Shown: positions 1,176 through 32,000 of the stretch, in pieces | Layout: every line of letters starts with the position of its first letter | Numbering within the stretch: position 1 is the first letter of the stretch | Source: Desulfocapsa sulfexigens DSM 10523 | GTDB lineage: Bacteria > Desulfobacterota > Desulfobulbia > Desulfobulbales > Desulfocapsaceae | DNA: 32,000 nucleotides | Direction: 5' to 3' | NCBI RefSeq assembly: GCF_000341395.1 | Contig: NC_020305.1 | Coordinates: forward strand, 4,752-36,751 | Notes under the pieces: model-generated | What the model saw: the letters and a program-made list of their open reading frames with translations, nothing else | What the model was told of the DNA's origin: nothing | The model's database searches: none | Position numbers and translations under genes: made by a program

Positions 1176-1176
1176 T

Positions 1177-2082: not shown

Positions 2083-2127
2083 CATAAATATTTCCTGTGG
2101 TTCTTCGCACTTTCTGAGGACAACATC

Positions 2128-4124: not shown

Positions 4125-4125
4125 A

Positions 4126-11635: not shown

Positions 11636-11967
11636 GAAAATAGTGATAGTTAGTTTCTGCACATCCGAGAATGGTGATAGTTAAGAAAGAATCAGGGAGT
11701 AATTACCCTCCAATCATTACGCTAATGGGCACATCCGAGAATGGTGATAGTTCATCCGAATTCGGTGATAGTTGAGAAAGAGTAAAGCAAACAATGCCCC
11801 TGTAACCCTTACTGGCAAGTACTTTACTGCCTATGTGTTCTCAATATCCATTCCCCCGAGAATAGTGATAGTTCATCCGAGAATGGTGATAATAACTCCG
11901 AGTTTAGTGATAGTTCATCCGAGTTTGGTGATAGTTAGTCCGAGAATGGTGATAGTTTGAGCAAAAT
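11636..11967. repeat. Iteron array (oriV): about nine copies of TCCGAGAATGGTGATAGTT
   Basis: Copies at 11636-11651 (partial), 11664-11682, 11734-11752 and 11755-11773. Five tandem copies with 21-bp phasing follow at 11865-11883, 11886-11904, 11907-11925, 11928-11946 and 11949-11967. Confidence 0.9.
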
Positions 11968-12060
11968 ATTCTTTATTTTTCATGTAATTACGTCACCTGT
12001 AATAACAACAAATAATACAAATATAAAAACAACAACATGGTCGGCAAGCCGCCCGCTCTT
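11968..12060. other. AT-rich stretch flanking the iterons (candidate DNA-unwinding element)
   Basis: A/T-dominated run (aataacaacaaataatacaaatataaaaacaacaac) directly after the tandem iterons. Confidence 0.5.
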
Positions 12061-16760: not shown

Positions 16761-16861
16761 CAGGAAGGAGTGGTGGTTTGTGTTGCAGGGTCTTTTATTT
16801 TATTATGCAATGTCGCATAATGTTTGAAAGGGGTTGTGATAAGCCACTAAAAGGTGAGTGT

Positions 16862-17172
16862 GGTGCAGGTGAGGGGTGCAAGTCTAGGGCAGGTGCAAGA
16901 TCAAAAAACAAAATCCGGCATTGATCATGGTCGTATTTACCACCATTAAGCAAGAGGGAAAATTTATGGAGCATTTTCTCAGTACCTATGACCCTTGCAC
17001 CACTTTCTTTATAAATATTTTTTATTTTAAAGGGTTAATGATGGTGCAGCCGGGGTGCAGGTTCGGGTGCATCGATGGTGCAGCAGTGGTGCAAGCTCCT
17101 TGGGGTGGTTTCAGTTGCACCACGATAAAACAACACTGTTTCAGTTAGATAGTAACAGGGTGCAAGGGTGCA
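16862..17172. repeat. Cluster of 12 GGTGCA hexamers (10 forward, 2 reverse) around an AT-rich core
   Basis: Forward copies at 16862, 16875, 16892, 17043, 17054, 17066, 17077, 17088, 17159 and 17167. Reverse TGCACC at 16996 and 17116. AT-rich tract at 17004-17040. Confidence 0.85.
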
Positions 17173-17332: not shown

Positions 17333-18364
17333 ATGAAGGGTTTTAGAAAAATCACCAAACGGCTATTTGGTAGAAAAAGTGCCAATCAGGCTGATTTTGG
17401 CATCATCGACGGAGAGGTGACGGATAATTGCGGTTCTATAGGGGAAGCCGTTGCTTTTGAAACGGAATTGGCGGAGTTTGAAGGTAAAACTATTGGGAAT
17501 CATAGCAATAGTTTTGGAAGAGAAGCGGAGTTCATTGAACCGGATCCACCAGCCGACGAGTTTAGGGAGCCGGTTCCGCCTGCGGAGCAAATTAATCCCG
17601 ATGAATGGGAGATACCGGAACCGTATCTTATCTATTTATCGGCCACCGGAAAGGCGAAAAGAACCATCCAGGAGTATCGCTGGGAATTGCTCTGGTGGAA
17701 CAGGCAGACCGCTCTTGCAAGGCTCACCCTCCAGGACATGGAAGGGATCATTCACAAGGTGCATCCTTCCACGGCCCGGCGAAAGGTTGCGGCAATCCGC
17801 TCTTTTGCGAAATGGCAGCTCCGGGAAGGTTCCGGACGGCTGCATGGTGAGGTAAGCCAGGTCATACTGCCAAAGACACCTTCCAGGATACCCAAGGACA
17901 GAGGAACGGATGAATTTATGGATTTGTCCAGGTGTGCCGTGGATCTGGTACGGGCCGGAGACAGAAGAGGGGTGTGGATTGGGCTTATGGGCTGCTGCGG
18001 CCTGCGGATCTCCGAGATACAGACCGCGGAACCGGCACCGGGTAAAACGATAAAGGTCATCGGGAAGGGAGACAAGGAAAGACAGATCCCTGCTCCGGCC
18101 TGGTTAATTGAAGCCCTGGGCTGTGACACATATAAGAGATGTTGGAAGAAGGGACGGCATCTGATCTGGTCTGAACTCAAAAAAATGGGGATCAGGAAAC
18201 CCCACAGCCTGAGACACACCTTTGCCAGCGAATTACGAAGAAAGGGTTATCCATTGGAAGAAATCAAAGTGTTGCTCGGACATAGCAAACTGGACACCAC
18301 TATGATCTATGCCAACGTAGCCCTGCCAAACGATATCACATCGAGGTTGGGGGTGGAGCATTGA
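17333..18364 (+). CDS. Tyrosine recombinase/integrase (XerC/D-like)
   Basis: C-terminal catalytic region HSLRHTFASELRRKGYPLEEIKVLLGHSKLDTTMIYANV, and RISE in GLRISEI. Confidence 0.9.
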   Translation: MKGFRKITKRLFGRKSANQADFGIIDGEVTDNCGSIGEAVAFETELAEFEGKTIGNHSNSFGREAEFIEPDPPADEFREPVPPAEQINPDEWEIPEPYLIYLSATGKAKRTIQEYRWELLWWNRQTALARLTLQDMEGIIHKVHPSTARRKVAAIRSFAKWQLREGSGRLHGEVSQVILPKTPSRIPKDRGTDEFMDLSRCAVDLVRAGDRRGVWIGLMGCCGLRISEIQTAEPAPGKTIKVIGKGDKERQIPAPAWLIEALGCDTYKRCWKKGRHLIWSELKKMGIRKPHSLRHTFASELRRKGYPLEEIKVLLGHSKLDTTMIYANVALPNDITSRLGVEH

Positions 18365-18930: not shown

Positions 18931-19669
18931 GGGCTTTGTCCTTACCGGCACCCATGGTGCAGGAAAAACCGCTATTCTGGAATGGATCAGCGTATTTCTG
19001 AAAAAAGATGTAACAACCATCAGTGCAGAGTGGACCGTCAAGGAAATGCTGGTCCAGATGTGCCTGGATTGGGCGGTGGAGGTCAGGGACGATGAAGGGG
19101 CAACCAGAGGCAAGACAAAATGGCAAGTGGCATGGATGGAACGGGCACTCCTGAAGGAGACCGATAAATGGTTAATCGTGGACGATATCCAGAAAGTGAC
19201 CCCCACCAAACTCCGAAGATTAAAACTGTTCCGGGATCGTGTGCGGATAATAGCCGCCGGAGTCCCGCCATTCCGACAGGAAGAACTGAAACGGCTCCTG
19301 TGGGGACTGCCGGCAATCCAGGTAAAACCCTTACCCACAGATGTCATGAACAGGATTGCCATAGCTGCAGCTCCTGTTCTGGAGTCACGAACACCAATAG
19401 GTGAGGCTGTCCATGCTTCCAGAGGGATACCTGGTCAATTGATTCATGCCCTGAGGGGTGAGGTTACCCCGGAGGCAAGAAAGGTGAGTGGGGAGGAGAT
19501 AGACCTCTCCCCACTGATCCTGATCGGCCTGGCCGGAGTGATGATAACCCGATATGTTGCCATCGGCCTTGAATCCACTTCTTTGTATATGCTTGGTGGT
19601 TTGGGTATGGGAATAGGTCTGATAGTGAGATTTTATCTATTCCGGGGGATGGAGGCACAGCGAAGATGA
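18848..19669 (+). CDS. AAA+-type P-loop ATPase with two C-terminal transmembrane helices
   Basis: Walker A GTHGAGKTA and Walker B WLIVDDIQ. C-terminal hydrophobic segments LILIGLAGVMITRYVAIGL and LGGLGMGIGLIVRFYLF. The start could be the GTG at 18848 or the ATG at 18854. Confidence 0.7.
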   Translation: MDMWKQIKLLGRDRLLAEEIRPRLKEGRGFVLTGTHGAGKTAILEWISVFLKKDVTTISAEWTVKEMLVQMCLDWAVEVRDDEGATRGKTKWQVAWMERALLKETDKWLIVDDIQKVTPTKLRRLKLFRDRVRIIAAGVPPFRQEELKRLLWGLPAIQVKPLPTDVMNRIAIAAAPVLESRTPIGEAVHASRGIPGQLIHALRGEVTPEARKVSGEEIDLSPLILIGLAGVMITRYVAIGLESTSLYMLGGLGMGIGLIVRFYLFRGMEAQRR

Positions 19670-20529
19670 CCGGGCCAACACATATTGCCATAGCCCTTTC
19701 AATAGGCATGGTTGCCGGGGCCTCAAAAGTGCATCTGGGTCTGATCGCTGCAGGGGCGATACTTCCGGATCTGGATCACCCGCAGTCTTTTATCGGGCGT
19801 GTTTTCTTTCCGATTTCGATACCACTGAACCAATGGCTGGGACATCGAGGGGCCTTTCATTCCTTTTGGCTCTGGCTCCTGGTGTGTCTGGGTGGGTACT
19901 TCTGGACACCGGCATTTTTTCTTGGAGCAGGGGCGATTCTCCATATCTTGGCAGACTGCGGGACCGTTTCCGGAGTCCGGGCTCTGTCGCCCTGGTCGCA
20001 AAAGCTCTTTGTGGTCTTTCGCAGGTCCTGGAGAATCAAAAGCGGATCACCGCATGAAATACTGGTGCTCATATGTTTCGGGATGATCGCCTGGGGAGGC
20101 GGGTATATGGGAGCCGTGGGCGGTATCCGGGCCATGATCGGCCACGTCACCGGCGCACCCAAGATTATGATGGAGGAGTTTATCTCCAAGGGGCTGACGA
20201 AATGCAAGGTAAAAGGAAAATTCCGCTGGAACACCGGAGAGATTGAGGAAGGAGAATGGCTGATTATCGGCACAGAAGGGCAGACCGGCCTGGCAATGCG
20301 GGGCAAAGACAAGCTTATCCATATACCCAAGGACGGGAAGTTTCTAAAGGCAAGGTTGAAACCGTGTCCCAACAAATCAACCTGGGAACTGGTCCAGCTC
20401 AAGGGGTGGGCTGAGACTGAAAAAGATGTTTATTTCATGGATGGAAAAAAATGGCATATAGCACAAGAGGGAGAAGTGGTCTGGGGCCAGATTTTGGGCG
20501 ACAAGATCGAACTGGAGAGTCTTTTGTAA
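19666..20529 (+). CDS. Membrane-bound metal-dependent hydrolase (YdjM/DUF457-like) with an extra soluble C-terminal domain of about 120 aa
   Basis: MTGPTHIAIAL...ILPDLDHPQS...HRGAFHS...HILADC histidine-rich TM pattern. The start overlaps the upstream stop (ATGA). Confidence 0.7.
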   Translation: MTGPTHIAIALSIGMVAGASKVHLGLIAAGAILPDLDHPQSFIGRVFFPISIPLNQWLGHRGAFHSFWLWLLVCLGGYFWTPAFFLGAGAILHILADCGTVSGVRALSPWSQKLFVVFRRSWRIKSGSPHEILVLICFGMIAWGGGYMGAVGGIRAMIGHVTGAPKIMMEEFISKGLTKCKVKGKFRWNTGEIEEGEWLIIGTEGQTGLAMRGKDKLIHIPKDGKFLKARLKPCPNKSTWELVQLKGWAETEKDVYFMDGKKWHIAQEGEVVWGQILGDKIELESLL

Positions 20530-20654
20530 TCTTCGCCCCCTTGGGAGAAAGGGTTATTGAAATGATCTTTTTTCAGGGAGAAAAGGGCGAAGCTGTTAAG
20601 AGGGCCAGGGTGTATGCTCCGGCTGGTAATTTTAAGATAGTGGAGAGATGAGGT

Positions 20655-20927
20655 ATGACAAAGAAGGAACTTGTTGAAGAAGTGGCAAAAGATGCGAAAA
20701 TCAGCCAGGCGGCAGCATTGCTGGCGGTTGATTCCATGACCAGGAATATAATGAAGGGATTGAAAAAGGGAGATCATGTTTCCTTGGTTGGTTTTGGCCG
20801 GTTTTCGGTGAAAGAGCGAGCGGCCAGGAAGGGGAGGAATCCGCAGACTGGTAAAGAAATCCAGATCCAAGCCCGAAAGGTTGTTAGGTTTACACCTGGT
20901 CAGCCATTGAAAGATGCCGTTAATTAA
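20655..20927 (+). CDS. hup: HU-family nucleoid-associated DNA-binding protein
   Basis: MTKKELVEEVA...GDHVSLVGFGRFSVKERAARKGRNPQTGKEIQIQARKVVRFTPGQPLKDAV is a canonical HU/IHF signature. 90 aa. Confidence 0.95.
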   Translation: MTKKELVEEVAKDAKISQAAALLAVDSMTRNIMKGLKKGDHVSLVGFGRFSVKERAARKGRNPQTGKEIQIQARKVVRFTPGQPLKDAVN

Positions 20928-21229: not shown

Positions 21230-21276
21230 TTGGTGTGGATACGCTAGATTCCCTTTGAACCGCTGCTGATGGATAC

Positions 21277-21385
21277 AAACTTCCAGCTTCGACCATGTGC
21301 CCAGAAACGACATCTAGCCCAGATTCAGGTTAAAACTGTCACGGCTTTTACCACTTCCCGCTTTAGTTAGATAGAGTATCCGGGC
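21277..21385 (+). repeat. Short (~109 bp) copy of the GC-rich structured element
   Basis: It aligns in three blocks to 23851-23875, about 24066-24093 and about 24176-24240. For example, ggttaaaactgtcacggcttttaccacttcccgctt matches ggttaaaactgtcacggcttttgcatcttcccgctt. Confidence 0.8.
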
Positions 21386-21408
21386 AACAAACAAATATCA
21401 GTCTTGGT

Positions 21409-22017
21409 TCATTTATCTTTTTGGAATAATGCCATACCATCAGTACCTTTTGGTATGAATGCAACGTTTTCTGACAACTCTTCGTGCTCAATCTCAACTA
21501 CAGCTAAATAACCTGTATCCAATGTTAGCTTTTCCCAGACAGGAAAATATGGTGCTAATTCTGCGTAATTGCCAATTCTATCCGTAAGATATTGATACAT
21601 ATCCCTTGACGGTAGAATCAGAAGACCTCCTTCAAGAACATTTTCAAGTAGTCCAATGGCAAGCTTATTTACCGCCCTGTGGCTTGAAGAAATATTACCA
21701 GTTTCCCATTCTACAGCAAAATATTTACCGTTATTCAATTTAAGGACGGCATCAACCGGACCTGGTTTTATTCGAGCCCCAAGAGCCATCGGATGTTCTA
21801 ATATCCAACCCTGTTCTTCCAAGTGTATCATACAATTTGTTTTTATTGGCTTTACGCCATTTCCCTTTTTCACGGGATTCAGGGTGAATATGTCAGAATC
21901 GGGTGGCCATGAAACCTTTTTTATTGCATGATAAACATCGTGGAGCAGTGTTTCCAGCTCATCACTTTTTGGAAATGAACCCTTTGAAATTAAAACTTCA
22001 GTCCTCAATATTTTCAT
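21409..22017 (-). CDS. Type II restriction endonuclease, BamHI family
   Basis: Collinear motif matches to R.BamHI as I remember it: EWETGNISSSHRAVNKLAIGL (BamHI EFETGNISSAHRSMNKLLLGL), QYLTDRIGNYAELAPYF (YYLTDRVTNFEELEPYF) and FIPKGTDGM (LIPKGSDGM). Confidence 0.9.
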   Translation of the reverse strand: MKILRTEVLISKGSFPKSDELETLLHDVYHAIKKVSWPPDSDIFTLNPVKKGNGVKPIKTNCMIHLEEQGWILEHPMALGARIKPGPVDAVLKLNNGKYFAVEWETGNISSSHRAVNKLAIGLLENVLEGGLLILPSRDMYQYLTDRIGNYAELAPYFPVWEKLTLDTGYLAVVEIEHEELSENVAFIPKGTDGMALFQKDK

Positions 22018-22237
22018 CTAGAATATCCTTTACCTTTTTTATCATTATATGAGGTTGCTCGTTTAATGCTTCGGCAATCTGTAATATTGATGTAAGAGAT
22101 GGTTGCCTTAGTCCACGCTCAAGAAGTGAGATAAAAGTTCTGTCTAGGTTTCCCATCAAAGCTAGTTTTTCCTGTGAAATTCCACGTGCATTCCTGATTT
22201 CCTTGAGAACCTTTCCGTAAACTTCTTCTGGTTTCAT
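21998..22237 (-). CDS. Controller (C) protein of the R-M system, XRE-type HTH
   Basis: MKPEEVYGKVLKEIRNARGISQEKLALMGNLDRTFISLLERG. GGAGGG RBS 6 nt upstream of the ATG at 22237. Overlaps the start of the endonuclease gene, as in C-R operons. Confidence 0.85.
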   Translation of the reverse strand: MKPEEVYGKVLKEIRNARGISQEKLALMGNLDRTFISLLERGLRQPSLTSILQIAEALNEQPHIMIKKVKDILDENIED

Positions 22238-22278
22238 ATGAATCCCTCCAAATATAATATGGGCCAACTTACTCTCTT

Positions 22279-22306
22279 GACCGCACTTGGTCGACGGACT
22301 ATAGTC
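22279..22306 (-). promoter_or_regulatory. Candidate C-box operator
   Basis: GACTATAGTC (22297-22306) and GACCGCACTTGGTC (22279-22292) lie 42-70 nt upstream of the C gene. Read on the minus strand they give GACTATAGTCCGTCGACC..GGTC, resembling GACT..AGTC C-boxes. Confidence 0.6.
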
Positions 22307-22383
22307 TGCAAAGGTAAGGTTTGACTTTGTTTAACAAGTAGGGTTCAGTTGGAACAAATAAGAGAAATAACCAGGAAATTATA

Positions 22384-23637
22384 ATGAAAAGACAGAATGC
22401 ATTTTTTGAAGCACTTGGCGTTGATGCAACAAATAGTAAGGAGGTAACGCGACTTGCTGTAATTAGCGGCATTTCCGTTAAAAAACTTCGTTACTACAAT
22501 GAACATCACCTGATGCCCTCTGGCACTGAGTTGGAGAAGATCATAGAAACAACCAATGTAACTAAGTTGAAGCTTATGTTGAAACTTGGTTGTGTTGATC
22601 ATAATGTTGCAGGAATGCTAAGTGAACATGCTGATGAAATTATTACTCTTTTTGAAAAAGAGAAAAAACAAACAAAAGCCAAAAAAAGATTACAGCCTGT
22701 CTTTGAAACAAATCTAGGAAAGCTTTATCACGGTAATTGTATTGAAGTCCTGATGCAGATGCCAAGCAATAGCGTTGATATGGTCTTTGCAGATCCACCG
22801 TTTAATCTGAACAAATTGTATCCCTCTAACATAAATGATGACTTAAAGGCTGAACAGTATCTGGATTGGTGTGAAGATTGGATAGACGAATGTGTGAGGG
22901 TCCTAAAGTTTGGCGGAGCGTTTTTATTATGGAATTTGCCAAAATGGAATTCTGCTTTATCTAATTTTCTGAATGATAGATTAACTTTCAGGCATTGGAT
23001 TGCTACCGACATCAAATATAGATTACCGATTAAAGGTAGACTGTATCCTGCACACTATTCTTTGCTGTATTATATAAACGGAGACAAGCCTAAAACATTC
23101 CATCCTGATAGGTTGCCAATGCAGGTATGTCCAAAATGTAGTGGTGATCTGAAAGATTATGGTGGCTATAAAGCAAAAATGAATCCAGCTGGAGTTAATA
23201 TGTCTGATATCTGGATTGATATTCCACCAGTCCGTCATAATAAATATAAGCGTCGCGAGGGGGCCAACGAACTATCACTTAAACTGCTCGATAGAATAGT
23301 GGAAATGAGCACCGATGAGGGAGACATTGTCTTTGATCCTTTTGGTGGTTCAGGTACTACCTACATGGCCTCTGAATTGAAAAAACGTAAATGGATTGGG
23401 TGTGAAATCGGCCCAGTTGATGATATTGTTAACAGGTTTGACCACATCAACGAAGAGAGGGAAATTCTAAATAATTATCGTGATAATTTAAATAGTTTAT
23501 TTCCAAAGCAGATCTTAAAAAAAAGAGAAAAGGAAGGGCTATGGACCTGTGAATCTGTCAGAAGTAAAGCTGCATTAAAAATGTCTACAACTACCTACAC
23601 AGAAAACTCCATTCCCCAGCTTGCAAAGACCAAATGA
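22384..23637 (+). CDS. DNA methyltransferase (beta-class N4-cytosine/N6-adenine), cognate to the BamHI-like endonuclease
   Basis: Motif IV FADPPFN precedes motif I FDPFGGSGTT (beta-class order). 417 aa. Divergent from the C-R operon, as in the BamHI system. Confidence 0.9.
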   Translation: MKRQNAFFEALGVDATNSKEVTRLAVISGISVKKLRYYNEHHLMPSGTELEKIIETTNVTKLKLMLKLGCVDHNVAGMLSEHADEIITLFEKEKKQTKAKKRLQPVFETNLGKLYHGNCIEVLMQMPSNSVDMVFADPPFNLNKLYPSNINDDLKAEQYLDWCEDWIDECVRVLKFGGAFLLWNLPKWNSALSNFLNDRLTFRHWIATDIKYRLPIKGRLYPAHYSLLYYINGDKPKTFHPDRLPMQVCPKCSGDLKDYGGYKAKMNPAGVNMSDIWIDIPPVRHNKYKRREGANELSLKLLDRIVEMSTDEGDIVFDPFGGSGTTYMASELKKRKWIGCEIGPVDDIVNRFDHINEEREILNNYRDNLNSLFPKQILKKREKEGLWTCESVRSKAALKMSTTTYTENSIPQLAKTK

Positions 23638-23850
23638 TTACAGGTTATACACAATCCGAGGTACGGAAAGTCCCCCCCGCACCCGCTCCGGCACGTCCTT
23701 TGCGTTTGTCTGCCCCGGTCGGCTGCAGCCCGGCAAACTGCCGCCGGTCTTCCGCTGCGCCCAGCTCAGCCAGCAAAGGCCCCGCCTCCACTCCTTCCGT
23801 GCAGGCTGCAGCGCTCCAGCTCCGCTTCAAGCCGGATCCCCGGTATCCCC

Positions 23851-24364
23851 AAGTTTCCAGCTTCGGCAGTGCACCTGGCAAAACAACACGCCAGGAGCCC
23901 TGCCTCTGTGCGTTCTGGTGGTAGACTCACCACCTGCTTAGTGTGGTGTCCACCGGCACATATTTTATAGCAGGCACAAAAAAATACTGCGCCCGCTATA
24001 AAAATGTGCGGAGGCCACACCCGATCCCGATCCGTGGCAGATCCAGGATCCTTTCTCCGGCCACGCACCCAGAAACTACACCTGGGAGCCTGTCCGGTAC
24101 CGGCTTTGGTGAGTAAGCCCAAGTCCTGCCTAAAGTGGTGTCCACCGCAAAAGCGCGGAGGCCACACCTGACACGGATTCCGGTTAAAACTGTCACGGCT
24201 TTTGCATCTTCCCGCTTCAATTAAATGGAGTTTCAGGGGCAAAAGCTCACGCCAGTTTTACCGGTAAGTGTCCGCTTGCGCGAATCACAGTGGACGCGGG
24301 ATACTGCCCCGCTTATGCCCCGGCCCGGTAAGTCAGATATGGGCAGGCATTCCGGGCCGGGGTA
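23851..24364 (+). repeat. Long copy A of the GC-rich hairpin-dense non-coding element
   Basis: Reverse-complement match to 30411-30926 with about 10 substitutions and 1 indel over about 514 bp, aligned by hand block by block. Confidence 0.95.
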
Positions 24365-24430
24365 TCTTTGGCCTGCGGCGCATGATAGAGGATCACTCCG
24401 GCCAGCACCGCCCCAGCCACCCGCCAGCAC

Positions 24431-24553
24431 AACCCCAAAACACAAACCGCCATAGCCCACCTGGTGCTGCAATGCAAGGTCGGTTGTCCAGTAGGGCACT
24501 CCACCTTGCATTGCAGCACCAGGCAGGCTTAAAGACATGGCGGTTTTGGGGTT
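24431..24553. repeat. Long palindrome: perfect 21-bp inverted repeat nested in a second, imperfect one
   Basis: cctggtgctgcaatgcaaggt (24460-24480) pairs with accttgcattgcagcaccagg (24503-24523). The outer arms are aaccccaaaacacaaaccgccat and atggcggttttggggtt. Confidence 0.9.
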
Positions 24554-24736
24554 GCACTGTCGGGTTTGGCTTAGGGGCTCTTGCTTCTCCCGGCCTCCGT
24601 TCTGAAAGTTTGGCGTTGCACGCTCTGAAAAAGACAGATACCTCCGGTGGGGGGTTCCCTCTCAGGTTTGGCCAAAGTCCGTGCCAGTTCCGCCTGTCCC
24701 AGGGTATGTTTTTACTGTTTAGTACGCACTGTTTCC

Positions 24737-24764
24737 TTGCAATATGCGCCCTGTTTGGTATAAT
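24737..24764 (+). promoter_or_regulatory. Near-consensus sigma-70 promoter with extended -10
   Basis: TTGCAA (24737-24742), a 16-nt spacer, then TGgTATAAT (TATAAT at 24759-24764). No credible CDS lies downstream for about 440 nt. Confidence 0.55.
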
Positions 24765-24770
24765 TATGTA

Positions 24771-25070
24771 AGCTAAAATATTTATTATATCAGGTGGTTT
24801 TATGGTTTCTTTCCCCTCCCGCACTTTGGCGCGTTGCTGGGCTGTTGCCTGTGGTGTCCCGGTTGCAGAGGCTGGGGCCGTTGTCTCCGGTCGCCCTGGG
24901 GCCTGGTCCTCGGTTCCCGGCCCTGCCGTCCAGGTTTCCTGCATGTTTTGCCATCGTTTGGGGCGGTGCGGCGGTTCACCTGGCGGTACCGGTTGCCGTT
25001 TCAAGCCCTCCCGCTGGTGGCCGGATCCGCGCTCCGGGCTGCCGGTTCAGCTCTCTCTTTTTCAATAAAA
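24771..25070 (+). ncRNA. Candidate ~300-nt GC-rich, A-poor non-coding transcript
   Basis: It lies downstream of the promoter above. All three forward frames and one reverse frame are open, which is a compositional artefact. CCGGTT(G/C) motifs recur at about 24859, 24989 and 25041. It ends near ctctctttttc. No family assignment is possible by eye. Confidence 0.25.
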
Positions 25071-25175
25071 AAGTAACGAAAAGGTGTAAATAAACCTGTA
25101 CTTTGTGCGTCCTTTTATGTTAAAATTACATAAAGAGTAAGGGAAAGGCCCTTGCCACATATTTTTTTGTACAGA

Positions 25176-25196
25176 GTGCGTACATTTAGTACGCAC
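25176..25196. promoter_or_regulatory. Palindromic operator GTGCGTAC-N5-GTACGCAC
   Basis: Perfect 8-bp inverted repeat just upstream of the RBS of the gene at 25213. The 12-mer TTTAGTACGCAC recurs at 24718-24729, next to the -35 of the upstream promoter. Confidence 0.55.
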
Positions 25197-25212
25197 AGCA
25201 AAGGAGGTTTTT

Positions 25213-25515
25213 ATGAATATGGCACACGAAATTACTCCGGAACAAATCACCCCTCGCTTTATCGCCGCCCTGGTCAAATGGCAGAAGAAAGGCCGCAGAT
25301 CCGTAGACGTCAAGATCCCGCCTCTTTGGTTTGACGAGGAAGGGGCTGTTTGTACCGTCTGGTGCTACGACAGCGATTTAATGGAAGGTCGCTTTGTTAC
25401 AAAAATTTCCGAGATCCCCACTACAAAACAGCTTGCCGAATCAAAGCGCCTGGCAATCGAAAAAGAAAGGGCCGAATTGCGGCAGAGATTAGCAGAAATG
25501 GAGGGCGAAAAATGA
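25213..25515 (+). CDS. Hypothetical protein (first gene of the recombination module)
   Basis: 100 aa with a strong RBS AAGGAGG. Coiled-coil-like C-terminus. Confidence 0.6.
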   Translation: MNMAHEITPEQITPRFIAALVKWQKKGRRSVDVKIPPLWFDEEGAVCTVWCYDSDLMEGRFVTKISEIPTTKQLAESKRLAIEKERAELRQRLAEMEGEK

Positions 25516-26372
25516 AATTACCGATCATTCAATCACCCCAGCTCGTAAAGCAAACAGAAATAGCCCTGGCCTATGCCCTTTTTCAACGGGAAAGGCACGG
25601 TAAACGGCTGGAACAGGTTGTTTTAGCCCCTGAAAACAAGCGGGGATACCTTGGGGTGTCTTCAATTTCCACCCCGCCGTGTGTGCTGTATTACTCGCTG
25701 ACAAACGAGCCCAAGGAAGAAACGGATCTTCCTTCCCGCTTTGGATTTGATACCGGCCATATTTTAGAAGGATACGTTCTGGATCTGCTCCAGGCCGAGG
25801 AACGCCAGGGGGAATTATCCTGGCCGTATCTTCTCGCCCCTAGTGGGGTTATTAAGGGCCATTTTGATGGCAGGACGAAAAATCTTATGCAGGATGGGGC
25901 TTGTATTATCGAGGTGAAGGCCACCGGGGGGTATTCGTTCAACAAAAAAATAGAGGAAGGTGCAGACAACGGGCATATCGAACAGGCATTCGTTTACGCA
26001 GTCGGCAGCTCCTCCCCCTATTTCGTTATAATTTACTGCAATCGTGAAGCAAAGAAAAGCACTCCTTTTTATGCGGTGTTTGGTTTTCATATTCCGGACA
26101 TGATAGCGGCAAAAAAGGCGGTTCAGGATCTGTTCGCAGAAAGATTCGATCCCGTTTTGTTATCCCTGCACCATGAATTACGGCCGGATCAGCCGGAAAA
26201 ACCCCGTTGGGAGTTCGGCCCCAGGGGCTGGCGGTGCCGCCCCGATTCTTCGTACTTCACTAAAGGCGGGAAGGAAAATTTTACCGTTGGCTATTGCTCT
26301 TACCGGGGAACCTGTCCGGAAGGGCTGGCGTACCGCGAAATCGAAGAGGAAAGAAAGGTCGCAGCGGCATAA
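25512..26372 (+). CDS. PD-(D/E)xK exonuclease, RecB/Cas4-like, with C-terminal cysteines
   Basis: I prefer the ATG at 25512, which overlaps the upstream stop. HFDGR...IIEVKAT (D...ExK) and QAFVY (QxxxY). Cysteines at PPCVLYY, WRCRP and GYCSYRGTCP suggest an Fe-S cluster. Confidence 0.75.
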   Translation: MKLPIIQSPQLVKQTEIALAYALFQRERHGKRLEQVVLAPENKRGYLGVSSISTPPCVLYYSLTNEPKEETDLPSRFGFDTGHILEGYVLDLLQAEERQGELSWPYLLAPSGVIKGHFDGRTKNLMQDGACIIEVKATGGYSFNKKIEEGADNGHIEQAFVYAVGSSSPYFVIIYCNREAKKSTPFYAVFGFHIPDMIAAKKAVQDLFAERFDPVLLSLHHELRPDQPEKPRWEFGPRGWRCRPDSSYFTKGGKENFTVGYCSYRGTCPEGLAYREIEEERKVAAA

Positions 26373-26380
26373 ATAAAAGC

Positions 26381-26408
26381 GTCGCCCTGGGCATTGCCCC
26401 AGGGCGAC
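26381..26408 (+). other. 11-bp perfect GC-rich hairpin between the nuclease and ATPase genes
   Basis: gtcgccctggg (26381-26391) pairs with cccagggcgac (26398-26408). No U-tract follows. Confidence 0.5.
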
Positions 26409-26428
26409 AGCACAGCGAGGCACAGATT

Positions 26429-27325
26429 ATGACTCTCTTTCAAAAAGCAGAACGAAAAAAAGCAAAACTCCGGCTCTCAATCGACGGGCCGAGCGGATCC
26501 GGGAAAACCCACTCCGGTTTACTGGTGGCCGGTGGCCTGGTACCGGATGGAAAAATATTTTTAATTGATACTGAGCGCGACAGCGCAACCCTGGAAACCG
26601 GAAAGCCGGGCATTCCTGATTTTTTCCACGCCCCCCTTACCCCACCGTTTACCCCGGCAAAGTATCGGGAATACATCGAGGCCGCAACTACGGAAGGGGC
26701 GGACGTAATTATAATTGATTCACTCTCTCATGCCTGGTCAGGCTCCGGGGGCGTGCTGGACATGCACGACACCGCAAGCAAGGCACAGCGGGGCGGGAAC
26801 AGCTGGGCCGCCTGGCGGGAAGTGACCCCGGAACACAACGCCCTGGTCGATGCAATTTTACAGGCCCCCTGCCATATCGTTTGCACTATGCGGACAAAAA
26901 CAGCATGGGAAGTGGTGGAAACCAGCAACGGCAAGAAGGCCCCGCAGAAAATAGGCCTCAAACCGGAACAGCGGGAAGGTATGGAATACGAGTTTACCCT
27001 TGTTCTGGATCTTGCCCTTGAAGGCCATATTGCAACGGCCAGCAAAGACCGAACATCCCTTTTCGATGGAAAACACTTTGTGCCTGGTATCGGAACTGGT
27101 GAAGAGTTGGCCGAGTGGTTGAACACTGGCCGGGATCCGGAAGAGATCAGCGCAGCAGCTCTCAAAAAACTGAAAGCTGCTGTCTCCAAAATTAAGGCCG
27201 TGCCCCATCTGGAAAACTGGTGGAAGGCGCATAGACCCGAGGCCGACAGACTGACCCCTGATGATCGGGAATGCCTGGTTACCCATTGTGCCGCCAGAAA
27301 AGAAAAGTTAATCGAAGAAGAATAA
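26429..27325 (+). CDS. AAA_24 / Sak4-like RecA-fold ATPase (phage recombination family)
   Basis: I prefer the ATG at 26429. KAKLRLSIDGPSGSGKTHSGL Walker A near the N-terminus, VIIIDSLSHAW Walker B, about 300 aa. Confidence 0.8.
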   Translation: MTLFQKAERKKAKLRLSIDGPSGSGKTHSGLLVAGGLVPDGKIFLIDTERDSATLETGKPGIPDFFHAPLTPPFTPAKYREYIEAATTEGADVIIIDSLSHAWSGSGGVLDMHDTASKAQRGGNSWAAWREVTPEHNALVDAILQAPCHIVCTMRTKTAWEVVETSNGKKAPQKIGLKPEQREGMEYEFTLVLDLALEGHIATASKDRTSLFDGKHFVPGIGTGEELAEWLNTGRDPEEISAAALKKLKAAVSKIKAVPHLENWWKAHRPEADRLTPDDRECLVTHCAARKEKLIEEE

Positions 27326-27364
27326 AGAATATGGGGCGGGCAAACCGCCCCTGGAGGTGATAAG

Positions 27365-27595
27365 ATGATGGTTTATGACGTATTATTCAAACGCGGAGAA
27401 AATGAGGGCAAGGGAATCTGGATGAAATGTGGTATTGTCCTGCAGAAACCAAACGGCAAAATGAGCCTGAAACTTGATACTGTGCCGGTCGGTGGTGATT
27501 TTGACGGCTGGATGGTAATATCAGAGCGCAGGCAGAACAACAGCGAACAAGACAACGTGCCGGAGATCCCGCAGGGGCAGGACGTACCATTTTAG
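27365..27595 (+). CDS. Small protein with an SSB-like C-terminal tip (..QGQDVPF)
   Basis: 76 aa with RBS GGAGGTG. The beta-rich N-terminal half could be a mini OB fold. The C-terminus resembles the SSB DDDIPF tail. Confidence 0.55.
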   Translation: MMVYDVLFKRGENEGKGIWMKCGIVLQKPNGKMSLKLDTVPVGGDFDGWMVISERRQNNSEQDNVPEIPQGQDVPF

Positions 27596-27606
27596 AGGAA
27601 GAGACC

Positions 27607-27927
27607 ATGGAGCAGATACCGCTTGATGAATATATAGCAGGAGTTGAAACCCTGGTGCCGCTGGCCCAGGGTGACACCGGAGGAGCCAGGGTTGCCGCCC
27701 AGGTACTTTTATCCGCCTATAACGGAGAGGATTACCAGCTCAACATTGTTGATTTGGGACTCCTGGACGAAAAGCATTACCAGGCAGCGTTGGCTGTGAT
27801 CCGGGGGAGGACAGAACTCCGGGCCGAACCTCACACCCTGATTTTTGATGGGGATAAGATATTCAAAACGTTGTGGCAGGACTGGAAGGGGTATCATGTC
27901 CAGCGACGAAGCCAGCTTTACGAGTAA
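27607..27927 (+). CDS. Hypothetical protein
   Basis: 106 aa, RBS GAGGAAGAG, same strand and tight spacing with the module. Confidence 0.6.
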   Translation: MEQIPLDEYIAGVETLVPLAQGDTGGARVAAQVLLSAYNGEDYQLNIVDLGLLDEKHYQAALAVIRGRTELRAEPHTLIFDGDKIFKTLWQDWKGYHVQRRSQLYE

Positions 27928-28210
27928 AACGCGGCATGTTTTCTGTTGCTTACACCGGGCAGGGTATTCTCCTGCCCGGATAATCTGTTTCTGTTTAGGC
28001 GGCACTACTTATATTTAGGAATAAGGTAACATCTACATATCGCATTCCATGTTTCCTTGCCGTTGGATTCATTCTCAACAGTGTGATAAATATGCTTGTG
28101 TAACCATTTATTGCGCTTACACTGAATCGGCCACCGACTTTCTATTTTACCCTTCTTGATATATGTTATGATGGAAAATACTAAACAAATTATTGCATAG
28201 GAGATACATT

Positions 28211-28654
28211 ATGAAAAAGGTAATCTTCATAGTAAGTATATTGGCAATGCTTACGGTATCAGCAATAGCACGTACTTGGTATGATGAAGATGGTAATGTA
28301 ATTTCTGGTTCAATATCATCCGATGGCGTTTTCCTTACAGAGAAAGAAATTGCAGAAATTGAGGCAAAAGAAGCTGAAGCTCGAAGAAAACTGTCTGAAT
28401 CCACGGTTACTACCAAGAAGACTAAAGAAAGAAATTATACCTCTCCATCTTCTGGTAATTTCACTCGATCTTATAGTTCAGTAAAGGCTTGTTATGATAT
28501 AGCTGCTATGGCCCACCTGACTGCTATCAGGGATTCGTCTGTCAAAGAATCCAATTATGAGCATGGTGTGGCGACAATAGAGTTTAAAAGTGGTAGGATG
28601 GTTAACTATACTTGCCTTGACAATGTTCTCATGTTTACGGAAATACACAAATAA
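28211..28654 (+). CDS. Secreted hypothetical protein (AT-rich cargo)
   Basis: ATG at 28211 with an AGGAG RBS. Signal peptide MKKVIFIVSILAMLTVSAIA. Confidence 0.6.
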   Translation: MKKVIFIVSILAMLTVSAIARTWYDEDGNVISGSISSDGVFLTEKEIAEIEAKEAEARRKLSESTVTTKKTKERNYTSPSSGNFTRSYSSVKACYDIAAMAHLTAIRDSSVKESNYEHGVATIEFKSGRMVNYTCLDNVLMFTEIHK

Positions 28655-28911
28655 TTACAAAATCAATGGCTATTTAAATGCGGTTTCTCGGGAGTGAGCA
28701 CAATCCTGAGACAACCACCCAAAGTAGCACGATGTTATTGTAATGATTACCGGCCGTTTGAATAACCAGTGGAAATCTTATTGATTCCATCAAATTTTTA
28801 TATATTAACTTACTACCGTATCAACGAACCATCACTCAAGTTGAGTCTGCATTGAATTCCTGTCAGATGCCTTACTGGAGAGAGTAACACAAACGAAGGT
28901 TTACGTTACCA

Positions 28912-28942
28912 CCCGGCCCGGATCTCCGAGCCGGGCTTTTTT
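28912..28942 (+). terminator. Rho-independent terminator
   Basis: cccggcccgg / ccgagccggg stem with one mismatch and loop atct, followed by cTTTTTT. Confidence 0.65.
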
Positions 28943-29123
28943 AGCTGTTATTCGGTAACGAAACTCAGTAAAGTAATCTAAGTAATGTTTTGAACCAGTT
29001 TTACGGGTTGCGTTACCATTTTGAGCAGACATCGAGGGTGCCGCCGGTCAGATCCGGACAAAAAACCTTCTCCCGGGTTGTGCCGGCAGCTGTTATGGAT
29101 AAGTAAAGTTATGAGGTAACGAA

Positions 29124-29675
29124 ATGAAAATAGGATACGCCCGAGTGAGCACCGGGGATCAAAACCCTGAGCTGCAGATCGACGCATTAGAAAAAGCAGG
29201 CTGTGAAAAAATATACACCGACAAAATCAGTGGAGCCAAAACGGACAGGCCAAACCTGAAAGATGCCCTGGGATATGTGCGGAAGGGTGATTGTCTGGTT
29301 GTCTGGCGGCTGGATCGTTTGGGCCGGAGCCTGAAACATCTGATAGAGGTTGTGGAAGGGCTGGAAGCCCAGGGAACGGGGTTTATTTCTTTGCAGGAAG
29401 GATTTGACACTACTTCCAGCGGCGGCAAGCTGGTTTTCCAGATTTTTGGAGCGCTGGCCGAATTTGAACGAAACCTGATCCGGGAGCGGACAAAGGCCGG
29501 ACTGGAGGCAGCCAGGGCCAGGGGCAGGGTAGGAGGAAGAAAGGCCAAGCTGGACAGTGACCAGGTGGGCACACTCAAGGCCATGCACGAAAGCCGGAAG
29601 CATACCATCAAAGAGATATGCTCTGTTTTTGGAATCTCGAAGCCGACTTTTTACAGATATCTGGAGGCTGAGTAA
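29124..29675 (+). CDS. Small serine recombinase (resolvase/invertase family)
   Basis: MKIGYARVSTGDQNPELQ with the catalytic Ser, VVWRLDRLGRS, GALAEFERNLIRERT, and the C-terminal HTH IKEICSVFGISKPTFYRYL. 183 aa. Confidence 0.95.
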   Translation: MKIGYARVSTGDQNPELQIDALEKAGCEKIYTDKISGAKTDRPNLKDALGYVRKGDCLVVWRLDRLGRSLKHLIEVVEGLEAQGTGFISLQEGFDTTSSGGKLVFQIFGALAEFERNLIRERTKAGLEAARARGRVGGRKAKLDSDQVGTLKAMHESRKHTIKEICSVFGISKPTFYRYLEAE

Positions 29676-30013
29676 TGGAACTGACAGAAAAAGATGCAGC
29701 TATTGCCTATGCAAAGGCATGGAATGCACTGGATTGCAGTGATTTTCTCGAATTGCTGGCTGATGACTGCACCTACGAATCTCAATGGGTAACCAGCGCA
29801 CTGGAAGGTAAGGAGGCAATCTCAAAATATCTTACCGGAAAAATGAAAACGGTAAAAACCGGGGGAGGGGCAACTGTACGTGCGGAACATGCACTTACCA
29901 CTGTTCCCGCATTTTTAAGAGAGGAAGGTCGCGATTGTGTCGTGTTAACCCAATGTATTGAGAAAGAAGTACAGGTTGCCATTCTTTTCGAAGTTGCAGA
30001 TGGAAAAATCTAA
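29675..30013 (+). CDS. NTF2/SnoaL-like fold protein
   Basis: 112 aa. AIAYAKAWNALDCSDFLELLADDCTYES is a typical SnoaL-like N-terminus. The ATG overlaps the recombinase stop. Confidence 0.6.
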   Translation: MELTEKDAAIAYAKAWNALDCSDFLELLADDCTYESQWVTSALEGKEAISKYLTGKMKTVKTGGGATVRAEHALTTVPAFLREEGRDCVVLTQCIEKEVQVAILFEVADGKI

Positions 30014-30410
30014 AGATATGATTGCTGTGCGCCGGAATTTTACCAGCCACAGGTAACTGGAGGCTGAATAAATAATTGATTTAATGGTGCTCATTTACAG
30101 TGAGCACCCATCTAGAAAATACTCAAAAAGTTTGCCCACTTTTCAAAGTGGCCGCCGGAGGCATCTGGAAGCAGTAAAAGTGGTTTTTTGTTGTGAGAAA
30201 GTTTTGCCAAAAACTTTTTTTGGAACAAAAAACCAACACGCCCCTCATCATTAAGAAAAATAGGTTCAGTCAAGTAAAAAAAGTTCCACTGAATTTGATT
30301 GAAAATCTATCCCTCGGTTGATCGATCAGGGATATTGAAACACTCTTTTTTTACTTTACTGGTTCTATTTTTTTTAATAGCCCCGCCGGGTCTTTTTCCG
30401 GCGGGAAACT

Positions 30411-30926
30411 TACCCCGGCCCGGAACACCTTGCCCAGATCTGACTTACCGGGCCGGGGCATAAGCGGGGCAGTATCCCGCGTCCACTGTGATTCGCGCAA
30501 GCGGACACTTACCGGTAAAACTGGCGTGAGCTTTTGCCCCTGAAACTCCATTTAATTGAAGCGGGAAGATGCAAAAGCCGTGACAGTTTTAACCGGAATC
30601 CGTGTCAGGTGTGGCCTCCGCGCTTTTGCGGTGGACACCACTTTAGGCAGGACTTGGGCTTACTCACCAAAGCCGGTACCGGACAGGCTCCCAGGTGTAG
30701 TTTCTGGGTGCGTGGCCGGAGAAAGGATCCTGGATCTGCCACGGATCGGGATCAGGTGTGGCCTCCGCACATTTTTATAGCGGGCGCAGTATTTTTTTGT
30801 GCCTGCTATAAAATATGTGCCGGTGGACACCACACTAAGCAGGTGGTGAATCTACAACCAGAGCGCACAGAGGCAGGGCTCCTGGCGTGTTGTTTTGCCA
30901 GGTGCACTGCCGAAGCTGGAAACCTT
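30411..30926 (-). repeat. Long copy B of the GC-rich hairpin-dense element (inverted relative to copy A)
   Basis: See copy A. Several 60-nt blocks are identical. The differences cluster in the terminal hairpin loop and near 30850-30870. Confidence 0.95.
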
Positions 30927-30929
30927 CAG

Positions 30930-31113
30930 GTAAGGGATCAACAAGAAGTTACGATCTTCGATCTGGCAATATTAACGTGTAAATGAGTATTGTGTTTGAA
31001 TGCATAAGCAGAAAGAAGAAAACAAGAAGAGACCTCCTGTGGTAGAATTAGCTTAGGAGCTGACCGTGACAGCATAAAGCCGCACAGAATCATTAGCCAC
31101 AAGGAGGTCTCTT
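30930..31113 (+). ncRNA. Candidate IS110 bridge RNA / structured 5-prime non-coding end
   Basis: A 15-bp stem with one bulge: agagacctcctgtgg (31028-31042) pairs with ccacaaggaggtctct (31097-31112). It encloses about 54 nt and sequesters the RBS. IS110-group elements are reported to encode the bridge RNA upstream of the recombinase. Confidence 0.4.
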
Positions 31114-32000
31114 ATGAACAGTATGCATTATATTGGATTTGACATCCACAAAAAGGTTATCAGTTTCTGTGAAAAGCGGATTGATGGAACTACTGTGGAT
31201 CAAGGAATGATTCGAGCCACGCGAGACAGTTTAACTGATTGGGTTGCAAAACGAGAAACCTCTTGGGTTGGTGCAATGGAAGCCACTCTGTTTACCGGGT
31301 GGATATACGATTACCTGCTACCATATGCCCAGGAACTAAAAGTTGCTCACCCTGAGATGCTCAAGGCAATAACAGCCGCCAAGAAAAAAAATGACGCGGC
31401 CGATGCGGAGAAGATCGCAGATTTGCTTCGCTGCAACCTCCTCCCTGAATGCTACATGGCCCCGGAGGAACATCGCAACCTACGTCGCATTCTCCGTTAC
31501 CGGAACCTTTTAGTCAGAGAAGCGGCAAAGATGAAGACCAAGACTGCCACCCTTTTGATGGAAGTGGGAGCGGAGTATAACAAACGACGCCTTCACGGGA
31601 GTAAATATTTTCAGGAACTGCTCAGTACCCTGGAATATGTACCCGAATCGGTACTCAACCTTCTACAGATGAGCCGAAGCAGCATGGAATTCTTTGACAG
31701 AATGCAGAAATCACTTATCAGTGCACTTGGCAATAATCCGCAGATCAGTCAACGAGTTGAGTTATTAAGGAGTATCCGGGGTATTGGTGAGGTAACAGCT
31801 CTTACCTGGGTGCTTGAAATCGGAGATGTTTATCGATTTGGCCGTATCAACCAGGCGGTCAGTTACTGTGGACTATGTAGCGCACAGAAAGAATCAGCAG
31901 GGAAAGAGATTCGAGGACCGCTATCCAAGAAACGGAATAAACATTTACAGACCGTACTGATTGAGGCTGCCAAACTGGCGCCGCACTGGAACCCTCAATT
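31114..32000 (+). CDS. IS110-family DEDD transposase/recombinase (3-prime truncated by the window edge)
   Basis: My own translation: MNSMHYIGFDIHKKVISF..AMEATLFTGW..KKKNDAADAEKIADLLR..LLRSIRGIGEVTALTWVLEIGDVYRF..SYCGLCSAQKESAGKEIRGPLSKKRNKHL. It is absent from the ORF track because there is no stop within the window. Confidence 0.9.
   Translation, partial: MNSMHYIGFDIHKKVISFCEKRIDGTTVDQGMIRATRDSLTDWVAKRETSWVGAMEATLFTGWIYDYLLPYAQELKVAHPEMLKAITAAKKKNDAADAEKIADLLRCNLLPECYMAPEEHRNLRRILRYRNLLVREAAKMKTKTATLLMEVGAEYNKRRLHGSKYFQELLSTLEYVPESVLNLLQMSRSSMEFFDRMQKSLISALGNNPQISQRVELLRSIRGIGEVTALTWVLEIGDVYRFGRINQAVSYCGLCSAQKESAGKEIRGPLSKKRNKHLQTVLIEAAKLAPHWNPQ

Follow-up and report, generated by a model that had tools for sequence, protein, structure and literature searches.

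The 32,000-nt stretch of Desulfocapsa sulfexigens DSM 10523 DNA analysed here (contig NC_020305.1, positions 4,752 to 36,751; hereafter the window, whose numbering is used for all coordinates) is most of a circular Rep_3 plasmid of about 35-40 kb, in which two inverted copies of one element lie between a large unique segment and a small segment of 6 kb. These two copies, called here arms A and B (Table 1), are the subject of this report. We regard it as probable that the arms are recombining copies of a non-coding leader, that they owe their continued likeness, and the small segment its inversion, to homologous recombination and gene conversion, and that the serine recombinase encoded in this segment resolves plasmid multimers.

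A repeat search detected one long inverted pair in the window, with arms of 510 nt that are 97% complementary without gaps and a spacer of 6051 nt between them. In the gapped alignment (513 columns) the arms are 98.4% identical, with seven substitutions (at 23913, 23920, 23926, 24022, 24339, 24348 and 24349) and one 1-nt indel (at 24345). These differences are confined to about 170 nt at the outer end and 26 nt at the inner end, and the middle of the arm is an unbroken run of 316 identical nt (24023-24338). A preliminary description of this DNA had already proposed the inverted pair, with coordinates correct to 2-3 nt; its single indel was recovered, its estimate of about ten substitutions was too high, and the genes that it placed between the arms were confirmed (a recombination-type module, a 147-aa open reading frame (ORF) with a signal-peptide-like start, a protein with Resolvase and HTH_7 domains and a SnoaL_2 protein). 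Run SRR25712206, assembled independently from short reads (Logan), contains one unitig that corresponds to window 24309-30467 at 99.97% identity and has inverted ends, and another, of 25 kb, that stops at 23882, 30 nt inside arm A, as expected since a graph built with k=31 breaks at a repeat. Because an independent assembly breaks at the arms, the repeat is not an assembly artefact.

Comparison with related plasmids showed that arm A belongs to a conserved non-coding leader that extends beyond it on both sides (about 23675-24590, some 0.9 kb, GC-rich and with multiple hairpins). The arms are copies of the upstream ~510 nt of this ~0.9-kb leader, which precedes a conserved operon encoding an adenine-depleted small ORF, a 100-aa protein, a PD-(D/E)XK exonuclease, an AAA_24 ATPase, a DUF7673 protein and the serine recombinase. 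Arm A is built of two paralogous units, which have in common the hairpin GGTGTCCACCG…GCGGAGGCCACACC, followed by a hairpin called here H3 and by a GC-rich hairpin. Arm B runs from unit 1 through the GC-rich hairpin only, and is without the outer extension, the long hairpin, the promoter and the adenine-depleted ORF that accompany arm A. As the preliminary description had supposed, the arms are non-coding, since homologous copies differ by frameshifts and stops in every frame; the same holds for the outer extension, and a protein-coding arm or outer extension was rejected for this reason. The preliminary description had overlooked the conservation of the leader beyond both ends of arm A, and also two further copies, of which the third is partial and degenerate (Table 1) and the fourth, diverged, opens the 25-kb Logan unitig (L009 1-290), 1.2 kb to the left of where the window starts. 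This fourth copy consists of the outer extension and unit 1 in the orientation of arm B, and is 78.5% identical to the corresponding leader parts of the window over 284 nt. By eye it is nearly identical to the version found in the closest related plasmid, so that the plasmid studied here would carry two 'alleles' of the element.

Each arm could alternatively be a gene for a structured non-coding RNA ending at the GC-rich hairpin. Both strands of the arm fold far better than shuffled controls (z = -6.8 and -7.4), the GC-rich hairpin followed by TATCTTT resembles a weak terminator, and the H3 stems covary, although covariation cannot distinguish RNA from folded DNA. Against RNA genes, the arm has no promoter-like site upstream, and both the 5' and the 3' limit of the conserved element vary from copy to copy. 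Furthermore, no Rfam 15 family matched the arms at its gathering score, with only chance-level miRNA-hairpin matches at E up to 10, and a tRNA/tmRNA scan gave no match. We therefore consider this alternative distinctly unlikely.

Relatives were collected by scanning genome and metagenome collections with a 34-mer and then a 20-mer of the arm, and by tracing homologs of the exonuclease and of the 88-aa adenine-depleted ORF to their contigs. The metagenome pattern scan gave five loci, L004 and L007 being chance matches of the 20-mer; pattern scans and a protein-based scan of viral contigs gave no match, and neither the arm nor 22 kb of the window had a DNA match in PLSDB or INPHARED. The closest relative, JAHIUA010000059.1 (L001), is a 37,643-bp contig of a metagenome-assembled genome labelled Proteobacteria. 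Its ends overlap by 113 nt, which makes it a complete circle of about 37.5 kb. The same plasmid is present in ERZ27247128 and JAHIWD010000098 and, as split large- and small-segment contigs, in Ga0180007 and Ga0180008. In this closest relative, a 4.85-kb small segment is bracketed by inverted arms. Their core is about 90% alike, and beyond it they take in the long hairpin together with some 100 nt of further sequence, a part that is 98% identical over at least 244 nt. Leader unit 2 is split there (L001 3395-5240) by a 1.6-kb insertion that encodes AP2-domain and circularly permuted YpsA/SLOG proteins and is flanked by imperfect direct repeats of unit 2, of about 100 bp. In a second plasmid, JALVQT010000206.1 (L012), the same core genes and the recombinase lie on a segment of 5.6 kb; the arms that enclose it measure at least 99 nt and are 99% identical, and the repeat takes in the end of an adenine-depleted gene. 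The distant members GBSed_10000404, CAZKBZ010000014 (L015) and Ga0208901_1000815 possess the same operon with ArdC in front, and inverted repeats were not found in the two distant members that were scanned. The bracketed architecture, which the preliminary description expected related plasmids to share, was thus found in two of them with shifted boundaries, the limits of the repeat being different in all three bracketed plasmids; it is conserved in one sub-lineage. The arms evolve in concert, as arms A and B are 98.4% identical to each other versus 73-88% to those of the closest relative, whose inner arms are 98% identical, and those of JALVQT010000206.1 are 99% identical.

The shifting boundaries bear on another alternative, also raised by the preliminary description, in which the 6-kb module would be moved as a composite transposon or as an element with terminal inverted repeats. 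The repeats do enclose a discrete gene set, and an IS110-family element lies about 50 bp past arm B. However, the sequences that flank the arms on the outside, …GGTATCCCC on the left and CAGGTAAGG… on the right, form no target-site duplication, no transposase is encoded in the arms or between them, and homology to relatives runs on across the outer boundary of arm A. Moreover, both the inner and the outer boundaries differ among the three plasmids, and the module occupies the same backbone in relatives without repeats. In three scans of the collections, no unit limited by the arms was found at unrelated genomic sites with the same ends and with duplications at its flanks. Transposition of the module is thus, in our opinion, extremely improbable.

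The orientation of the small segment was compared between the window and the closest relative. The arm on the HU side has the same orientation relative to the YdjM and HU genes in both plasmids (window 19483-20903 and 24034-24570 match the plus strand of L008); it joins the end with the 88-aa ORF and the exonuclease in the window, and the recombinase end in the relative. The order YdjM-HU, arm, small segment therefore reads +/+/+ in the window and +/+/- in the relative, and the backbone is otherwise collinear, so that, as assembled, the two plasmids differ by exactly the inversion predicted from recombination between the arms. The segment is oriented as in the relative in JALVQT010000206 and as in the window in JAANSX012308204. 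Since the longest identical run in the arms of the relative (138 nt) is shorter than the k=141 given in the contig record name, the orientation of the relative would rest on unique k-mers. From the comparison of the window with its closest relative we infer that inversion between the arms has occurred in this plasmid lineage, in agreement with the idea of the preliminary description that the segment can flip.

Several observations weigh against this reading. In the window the arms share 316 identical nt, a length across which a short-read assembler could take either path, so that the orientation given for the window is provisional; no contig in the searched collections spans a whole arm of the window's plasmid. 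All arm-spanning resolved assemblies of the closest relative join the small segment to the same backbone flank, which corresponds to one orientation; flip-flop within one population is a prediction. The small segments of the window and of JALVQT010000206 differ in gene content, which indicates a history exceeding one simple inversion. Finally, part of the plasmid falls outside the window, namely the remainder of the IS110 element and the DNA from there to copy C, and may hold a second recombinase site.

The preliminary description had also named the serine recombinase as a possible agent of the inversion. In such a switch of the Hin/Gin/Cin type, the recombinase would act at crossover sites within both arms, and its gene does lie within the bracketed segment. 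The protein belongs to the invertase subfamily and is far nearer Gin (174 bits, E = 1.7e-50, in a PDB search) than the gamma-delta (108 bits) and Tn3 (102 bits) resolvases. By contrast, its sole hix/gix-like site, a perfect 26-bp palindrome with an asymmetric AA centre located 215 bp upstream of the start codon, is outside the arms. No second copy of this site turned up in the window with up to 3 mismatches allowed, and the arms contain no hix/gix-like site, a scan for WAAACCNNGGTTTW being empty there; instead of two inverted sites of about 26 bp at the segment borders, there is a single internal one. A 10-mer shared by the arm and the region upstream of the recombinase gene (CCAGTTTTAC) was dismissed as being at chance level, about 30 such matches being expected by estimate.

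The palindrome is followed by a terminator-like hairpin and then by three direct and one inverted half-site-like repeats (28957-29016). The positions of palindrome and half-site-like repeats agree between the window, JALVQT010000206 and CAZKBZ010000014, the last of which lacks the inverted repeats, and their arrangement is res-like by sequence. Exactly one such site was found at every locus having the recombinase gene, relatives without inverted repeats included, and the available sequence thus holds one site per plasmid monomer. The recombinase and its res-like site are most likely a plasmid multimer-resolution system. A single site near its own gene, the lack of any site in the arms and the same arrangement in relatives without repeats all argue against the recombinase as the inverter of the segment, as do the repeat boundaries that vary between plasmids; site-specific inversion by this protein is quite improbable, and this part of the earlier proposal is not supported. 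In the account that we favour, based on homologous recombination, gene conversion would keep the two arms alike and reciprocal recombination in the 316-nt identical core would flip the small segment, possibly assisted by the exonuclease and the AAA_24 protein of the segment, while the serine recombinase would act as a multimer resolvase at its own single site and not as an invertase.

The preliminary description had further argued for selection on structure from the GC-rich hairpin at the inner end of the arm, in which the substitutions fall in the loop. The hairpin exists and its loop does hold four of the eight differences between the arms, the loop being variable among relatives too, but the stem is invariant across copies, save one mismatch in one arm of the closest relative, and therefore gives no covariation evidence. 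Clustering of differences at both ends of a repeat is moreover the normal footprint of gene conversion, which makes the argument weak as it was stated; among the outer differences, that at 23920 (G/T) disrupts a predicted stem pair. Covariation, absent from this hairpin, was seen in two others. An alignment fold of H3 (six copies from three plasmids) gave a consensus of 18 pairs, 8 of which have changed on both sides with pairing kept, and the covarying pairs enclose the invariant internal-loop motifs GTCACG and CGCC. The covariance model built from these six copies detected two more in JALVQT010000206, on the opposite strand and adjoining the primase gene. The second is the long imperfect hairpin, which in the window sits between arm A and the operon promoter, within the small segment, and in the closest relative belongs to both arms; its apical stem shows five fully compensated pair differences between the two plasmids. 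In JALVQT010000206 it extends to about 410 nt (L012 6263-6676) with palindrome arms. The ends of the circular contig of the closest relative join inside this hairpin. Inspection of the long hairpin by eye revealed neither core sites like those of integron attC nor a perfect palindrome of the telomere-resolution kind. A strand preference of the hairpin was examined and discarded: the better folding of the antisense strand is shared by its shuffled versions, which points to an effect of base composition.

The inverted pair might instead be selected for a function in folded single-stranded DNA, as a priming signal for a DnaG-type primase or a Frpo-like promoter needed on both strands, with inversion as a by-product. 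H3 has covarying stems around a conserved loop and occurs on both strands in the window, the closest relative and JALVQT010000206, where its two extra copies adjoin the primase gene; the long hairpin has compensatory changes; and the plasmid encodes a DnaG-like primase. In addition, neither a promoter nor downstream genes accompany the second arms on their strand, and these arms are thus not simply duplicated leaders, and the operon is GC-rich and ArdC-led in distant relatives, like plasmid leading regions (PMC11541004, PMC13478746). The distant relatives that have the same operon lack the hairpins, however, and no relaxase, oriT or transfer genes were recognised in the window. In the hairpin stem only weak -35/-10 matches were seen by eye (TTGCAT/TTGCAA-N17-18-TAAA(A/G)), with nothing at the scan threshold, and the strand preference of the hairpin is inseparable from base composition. 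PLSDB should include the F, R100 and ColIb plasmids, with known Frpo and ssi sequences. The arm DNA has no similarity to anything in this database in distant mode, hence presumably none to the known Frpo and ssi sequences. Selection of the pair for such a function appears to us rather unlikely. Equally unlikely is a more specific proposal, in which the arms would be a new class of cis-acting hairpin module active as single strands (the 'bubble' GTCACG hairpin plus the long hairpin), required on both strands and coupled to an early operon with first genes almost devoid of adenine on the coding strand, so as to form an establishment or replication-priming device of a sulfate-reducer-like plasmid lineage, flipping being a side effect.

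The leading gene or genes of the operon have an unusual composition, with 2-9% adenine on the coding strand compared to 26-31% in neighbour genes. Besides the 88-aa ORF of the window, adenine-depleted members were found at L012 5697-6038 (minus strand), L015 8027-8377, L018 5331-6190, L019 5116-5361 and L025 343-606. Their products are small and composed mainly of A, V, G, S, P, R, L, F, C and W. Differences between homologs at the three codon positions number 24/24/41 for the 88-aa ORF and 25/21/71 for a related family of 113-116 aa; this excess at third positions, together with indels that keep the frame, indicates that the adenine-depleted ORFs are real genes. The family is tiny: a search of 1.8 billion proteins at E ≤ 0.001 gave 15 cluster representatives, from which no function could be derived.

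The small segment further contains a conserved core (25213-27927, plus strand), and 3.9 kb of the segment are 88.7% identical to that of the closest relative. In the large segment, the iteron region upstream of the Rep_3 gene is probably the vegetative origin, and plasmid-type genes for ParA, a 992-aa DnaG-type primase, AAA_22, YdjM and HU are also present. The BamHI cassette is bracketed by direct partial leader copies, namely the third copy and arm A. The slot between the HU gene and the arm carries a different defence cargo in each relative, the closest one having SNF2, DUF4391, methylase and ResIII endonuclease genes together with a trypsin-like protease, and looks like a cargo hot-spot.

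These cassettes suggest another role for the leader copies, as sites or modules for the Xer/integron-like tyrosine recombinase of the backbone, through which cassettes would be exchanged or inverted like the pdif modules of Acinetobacter Rep_3 plasmids. The BamHI cassette between direct partial copies, the AP2/cpYpsA insertion of the closest relative between unit 2 repeats, a cargo that differs in every plasmid and a tyrosine recombinase conserved in the backbone all accord with this view. On the other hand, the break-points of homology differ at every junction, which leaves no common crossover point, a core-type site for a tyrosine recombinase was not identified, and relatives exist that have the integrase without the hairpin element and the inverted repeats. 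This explanation is, in our judgement, highly improbable.

The right end of the window is occupied by an IS110-family element whose transposase homologs carry Desulfobulbaceae or Desulfocapsa names in public records. The possibility that this element cuts arm B was rejected, since its left end (near 30975) begins about 50 bp beyond the arm; its left non-coding end, of about 135 bp, would house a bridge RNA. Elsewhere in the window, arrays of short repeats of the GGTGCA(G/A)G type lie between the primase and tyrosine-recombinase genes (16850-17170), are conserved in a relative (L012 11160-11600), and could be binding sites or an origin-like region. At 237-5808, genes for a 2-hydroxyacid dehydrogenase, a 319-aa protein of no assigned family, a glutathione-synthetase-like ATP-grasp protein, an acyl-CoA:6-APA acyltransferase-like protein and a radical SAM protein may form a small-molecule or peptide-modification pathway. 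An 894-aa protein encoded next to the replication initiator gene (7351-10035, minus strand) has the unusual pairing of an N-terminal HsdR-N-type nuclease with a C-terminal S1 RNA-binding domain.

Table 1. Features of the window, in order of position.
Feature	Coordinates	Strand	Remarks
Rep_3 initiator	10259-11554	-	plasmid backbone
21-bp iterons, CATCCGAGAATGGTGATAGTT-like	11662-11978		at least 7 copies; upstream of Rep_3 gene
Xer/integron-like tyrosine recombinase	17333-18364		conserved backbone gene
Third leader copy, partial, degenerate	21240-21406	+	direct orientation to arm A
H3, weak copy	21326-21406	+	covariance model match
BamHI-type restriction-modification pair	21409-23637		directly left of arm A
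Outer leader extension	23675-23850	+	beside arm A only; 73-79% identity to copies in closest relative and to fourth copy
Leader unit 1	23851-24045	+	paralogous to unit 2
Inverted-repeat arm A	23853-24362	+	unit 1, unit 2, H3, GC-rich hairpin; portion of longer non-coding leader
Leader unit 2	24046-24170	+	paralogous to unit 1
H3 'bubble' hairpin, 85 nt	24180-24264	+	covarying stems; conserved internal loop GTCACGGC opposite GCTCACGC
GC-rich hairpin at arm inner end	24317-24362	+	11-bp stem, 23-nt loop
Long imperfect hairpin, ~190 nt	24400-24590	+	just inside arm A; fold z-score -5.8; outside repeat in this plasmid
Sigma-70-like promoter	24737-24764	+	reads into operon; TTGCAA, 16 nt, TG-n-TATAAT; 10/12 matches, extended -10; consensus match only
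Adenine-depleted ORF, 88 aa	24802-25068	+	6% A; first operon gene
100-aa protein	25213-25515	+	conserved core
Cas4/PD-(D/E)XK-like exonuclease	25512-26372	+	conserved core
AAA_24 ATPase	26429-27325	+	conserved core; phrog_1366; weak Sak4-like match
76-aa protein	27365-27595	+	conserved core
DUF7673 protein	27607-27927	+	conserved core
26-bp palindrome GTAACACAAACG-AA-GGTTTACGTTAC	28884-28909	+	candidate crossover site (site I); 0 expected by chance
Small serine recombinase, 183 aa	29124-29675	+	Pfam Resolvase + HTH_7; closest to Gin invertase
SnoaL_2 / NTF2-like protein	29675-30013	+	variable small-segment cargo; absent from relatives
Inverted-repeat arm B	30414-30923	-	unit 1 through GC-rich hairpin only
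H3, mirror copy	30512-30596	-	within arm B
IS110-family element	30975-32000		transposase from 31114, cut by window end; NF033542, 163 bits

A small plasmid lineage that retains this layout while its boundaries drift, and whose close relatives differ by the predicted inversion, offers a natural system for the maintenance of repeats and for inversion. In practice, users of short-read assemblies of these plasmids should expect either a break at the arms or an arbitrary choice of orientation. The analysis also corrects the assumption that a recombinase encoded inside a repeat-bounded segment must be its invertase. In the invertible segments of phage Mu (G), phage P1 (C) and Salmonella (H), the recombinases of the Hin/Gin/Cin/Pin group act at two inverted 26-bp crossover sites at the borders; hin sits inside its invertible segment, and the P1 C segment has inverted repeats of about 0.6 kb. 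Switches of this type also have a Fis-dependent enhancer in or near the recombinase gene, of which the Fis sites are too degenerate for recognition in a sequence alone. The plasmid studied here shares with them a Gin-like recombinase, and differs in its one internal site and in its resolvase-like accessory repeats.

In pSM19035, the beta recombinase resolves or inverts, uses an HU-type cofactor, and is encoded together with its six site in duplicate within the repeats. Plasmid pSM19035 and the inc18 plasmids carry long inverted repeats and the beta recombinase (see reference 26 of PMC2441792). Long inverted repeats and a small serine recombinase are common to both systems, and the plasmid described here encodes HU; unlike in pSM19035, its recombinase gene and site are single-copy and lie in the small segment. 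The yeast 2-micron plasmid has inverted repeats of 599 bp, within which lie the FRT targets of the FLP tyrosine recombinase. Here too a small circular plasmid has inverted repeats of about 0.5 kb and a recombinase gene in one unique segment, but the candidate site of the serine recombinase is single and outside the repeats, and there is no sign of copy-number amplification.

With regard to the hairpins, IncQ origins need ssiA and ssiB, one per strand. Frpo is a promoter located downstream of oriT; a hairpin of the transferred strand forms it, with the -35, -10 and UP elements in the stem (PMC11541004). The plasmid of D. sulfexigens resembles these systems in having long imperfect hairpins before a GC-rich operon of the early type (ArdC-led in distant relatives) and hairpins on both strands; it differs in having no similar sequence, in a stem that shows no clear -35/-10, and in that no oriT or relaxase was seen.

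The closest parallels to the layout as a whole are chloroplast genomes, organized as inverted repeats between large and small single-copy regions, which show repeat-mediated inversion isomerism. Inversion isomerism mediated by inverted repeats is likewise known for the Halobacterium plasmid pNRC100 (see PMC1447603). As in these two, long inverted repeats divide the circle into a large and a small segment (in the window, in the closest relative, which is circular, and in JALVQT010000206), the arms show concerted evolution, and no dedicated site-specific recombinase would be needed. As assembled, close relatives also carry the small segment in opposite orientations. Unlike those of chloroplasts and pNRC100, the arms are of 0.5 kb (at least 0.7 kb in the closest relative), non-coding and hairpin-rich, and not blocks of rRNA or other genes; their boundaries shift between close relatives, and the presumed isomers come from comparison between plasmids, not from one population. 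To our knowledge, few bacterial plasmids have an organisation like that of chloroplast genomes or of the 2-micron plasmid. The layout as such belongs to an already known type, repeat-mediated inversion isomerism, and the parts exposed here that could be new are the hairpin element, conserved and found on both strands, and the adenine-depleted protein-coding genes.

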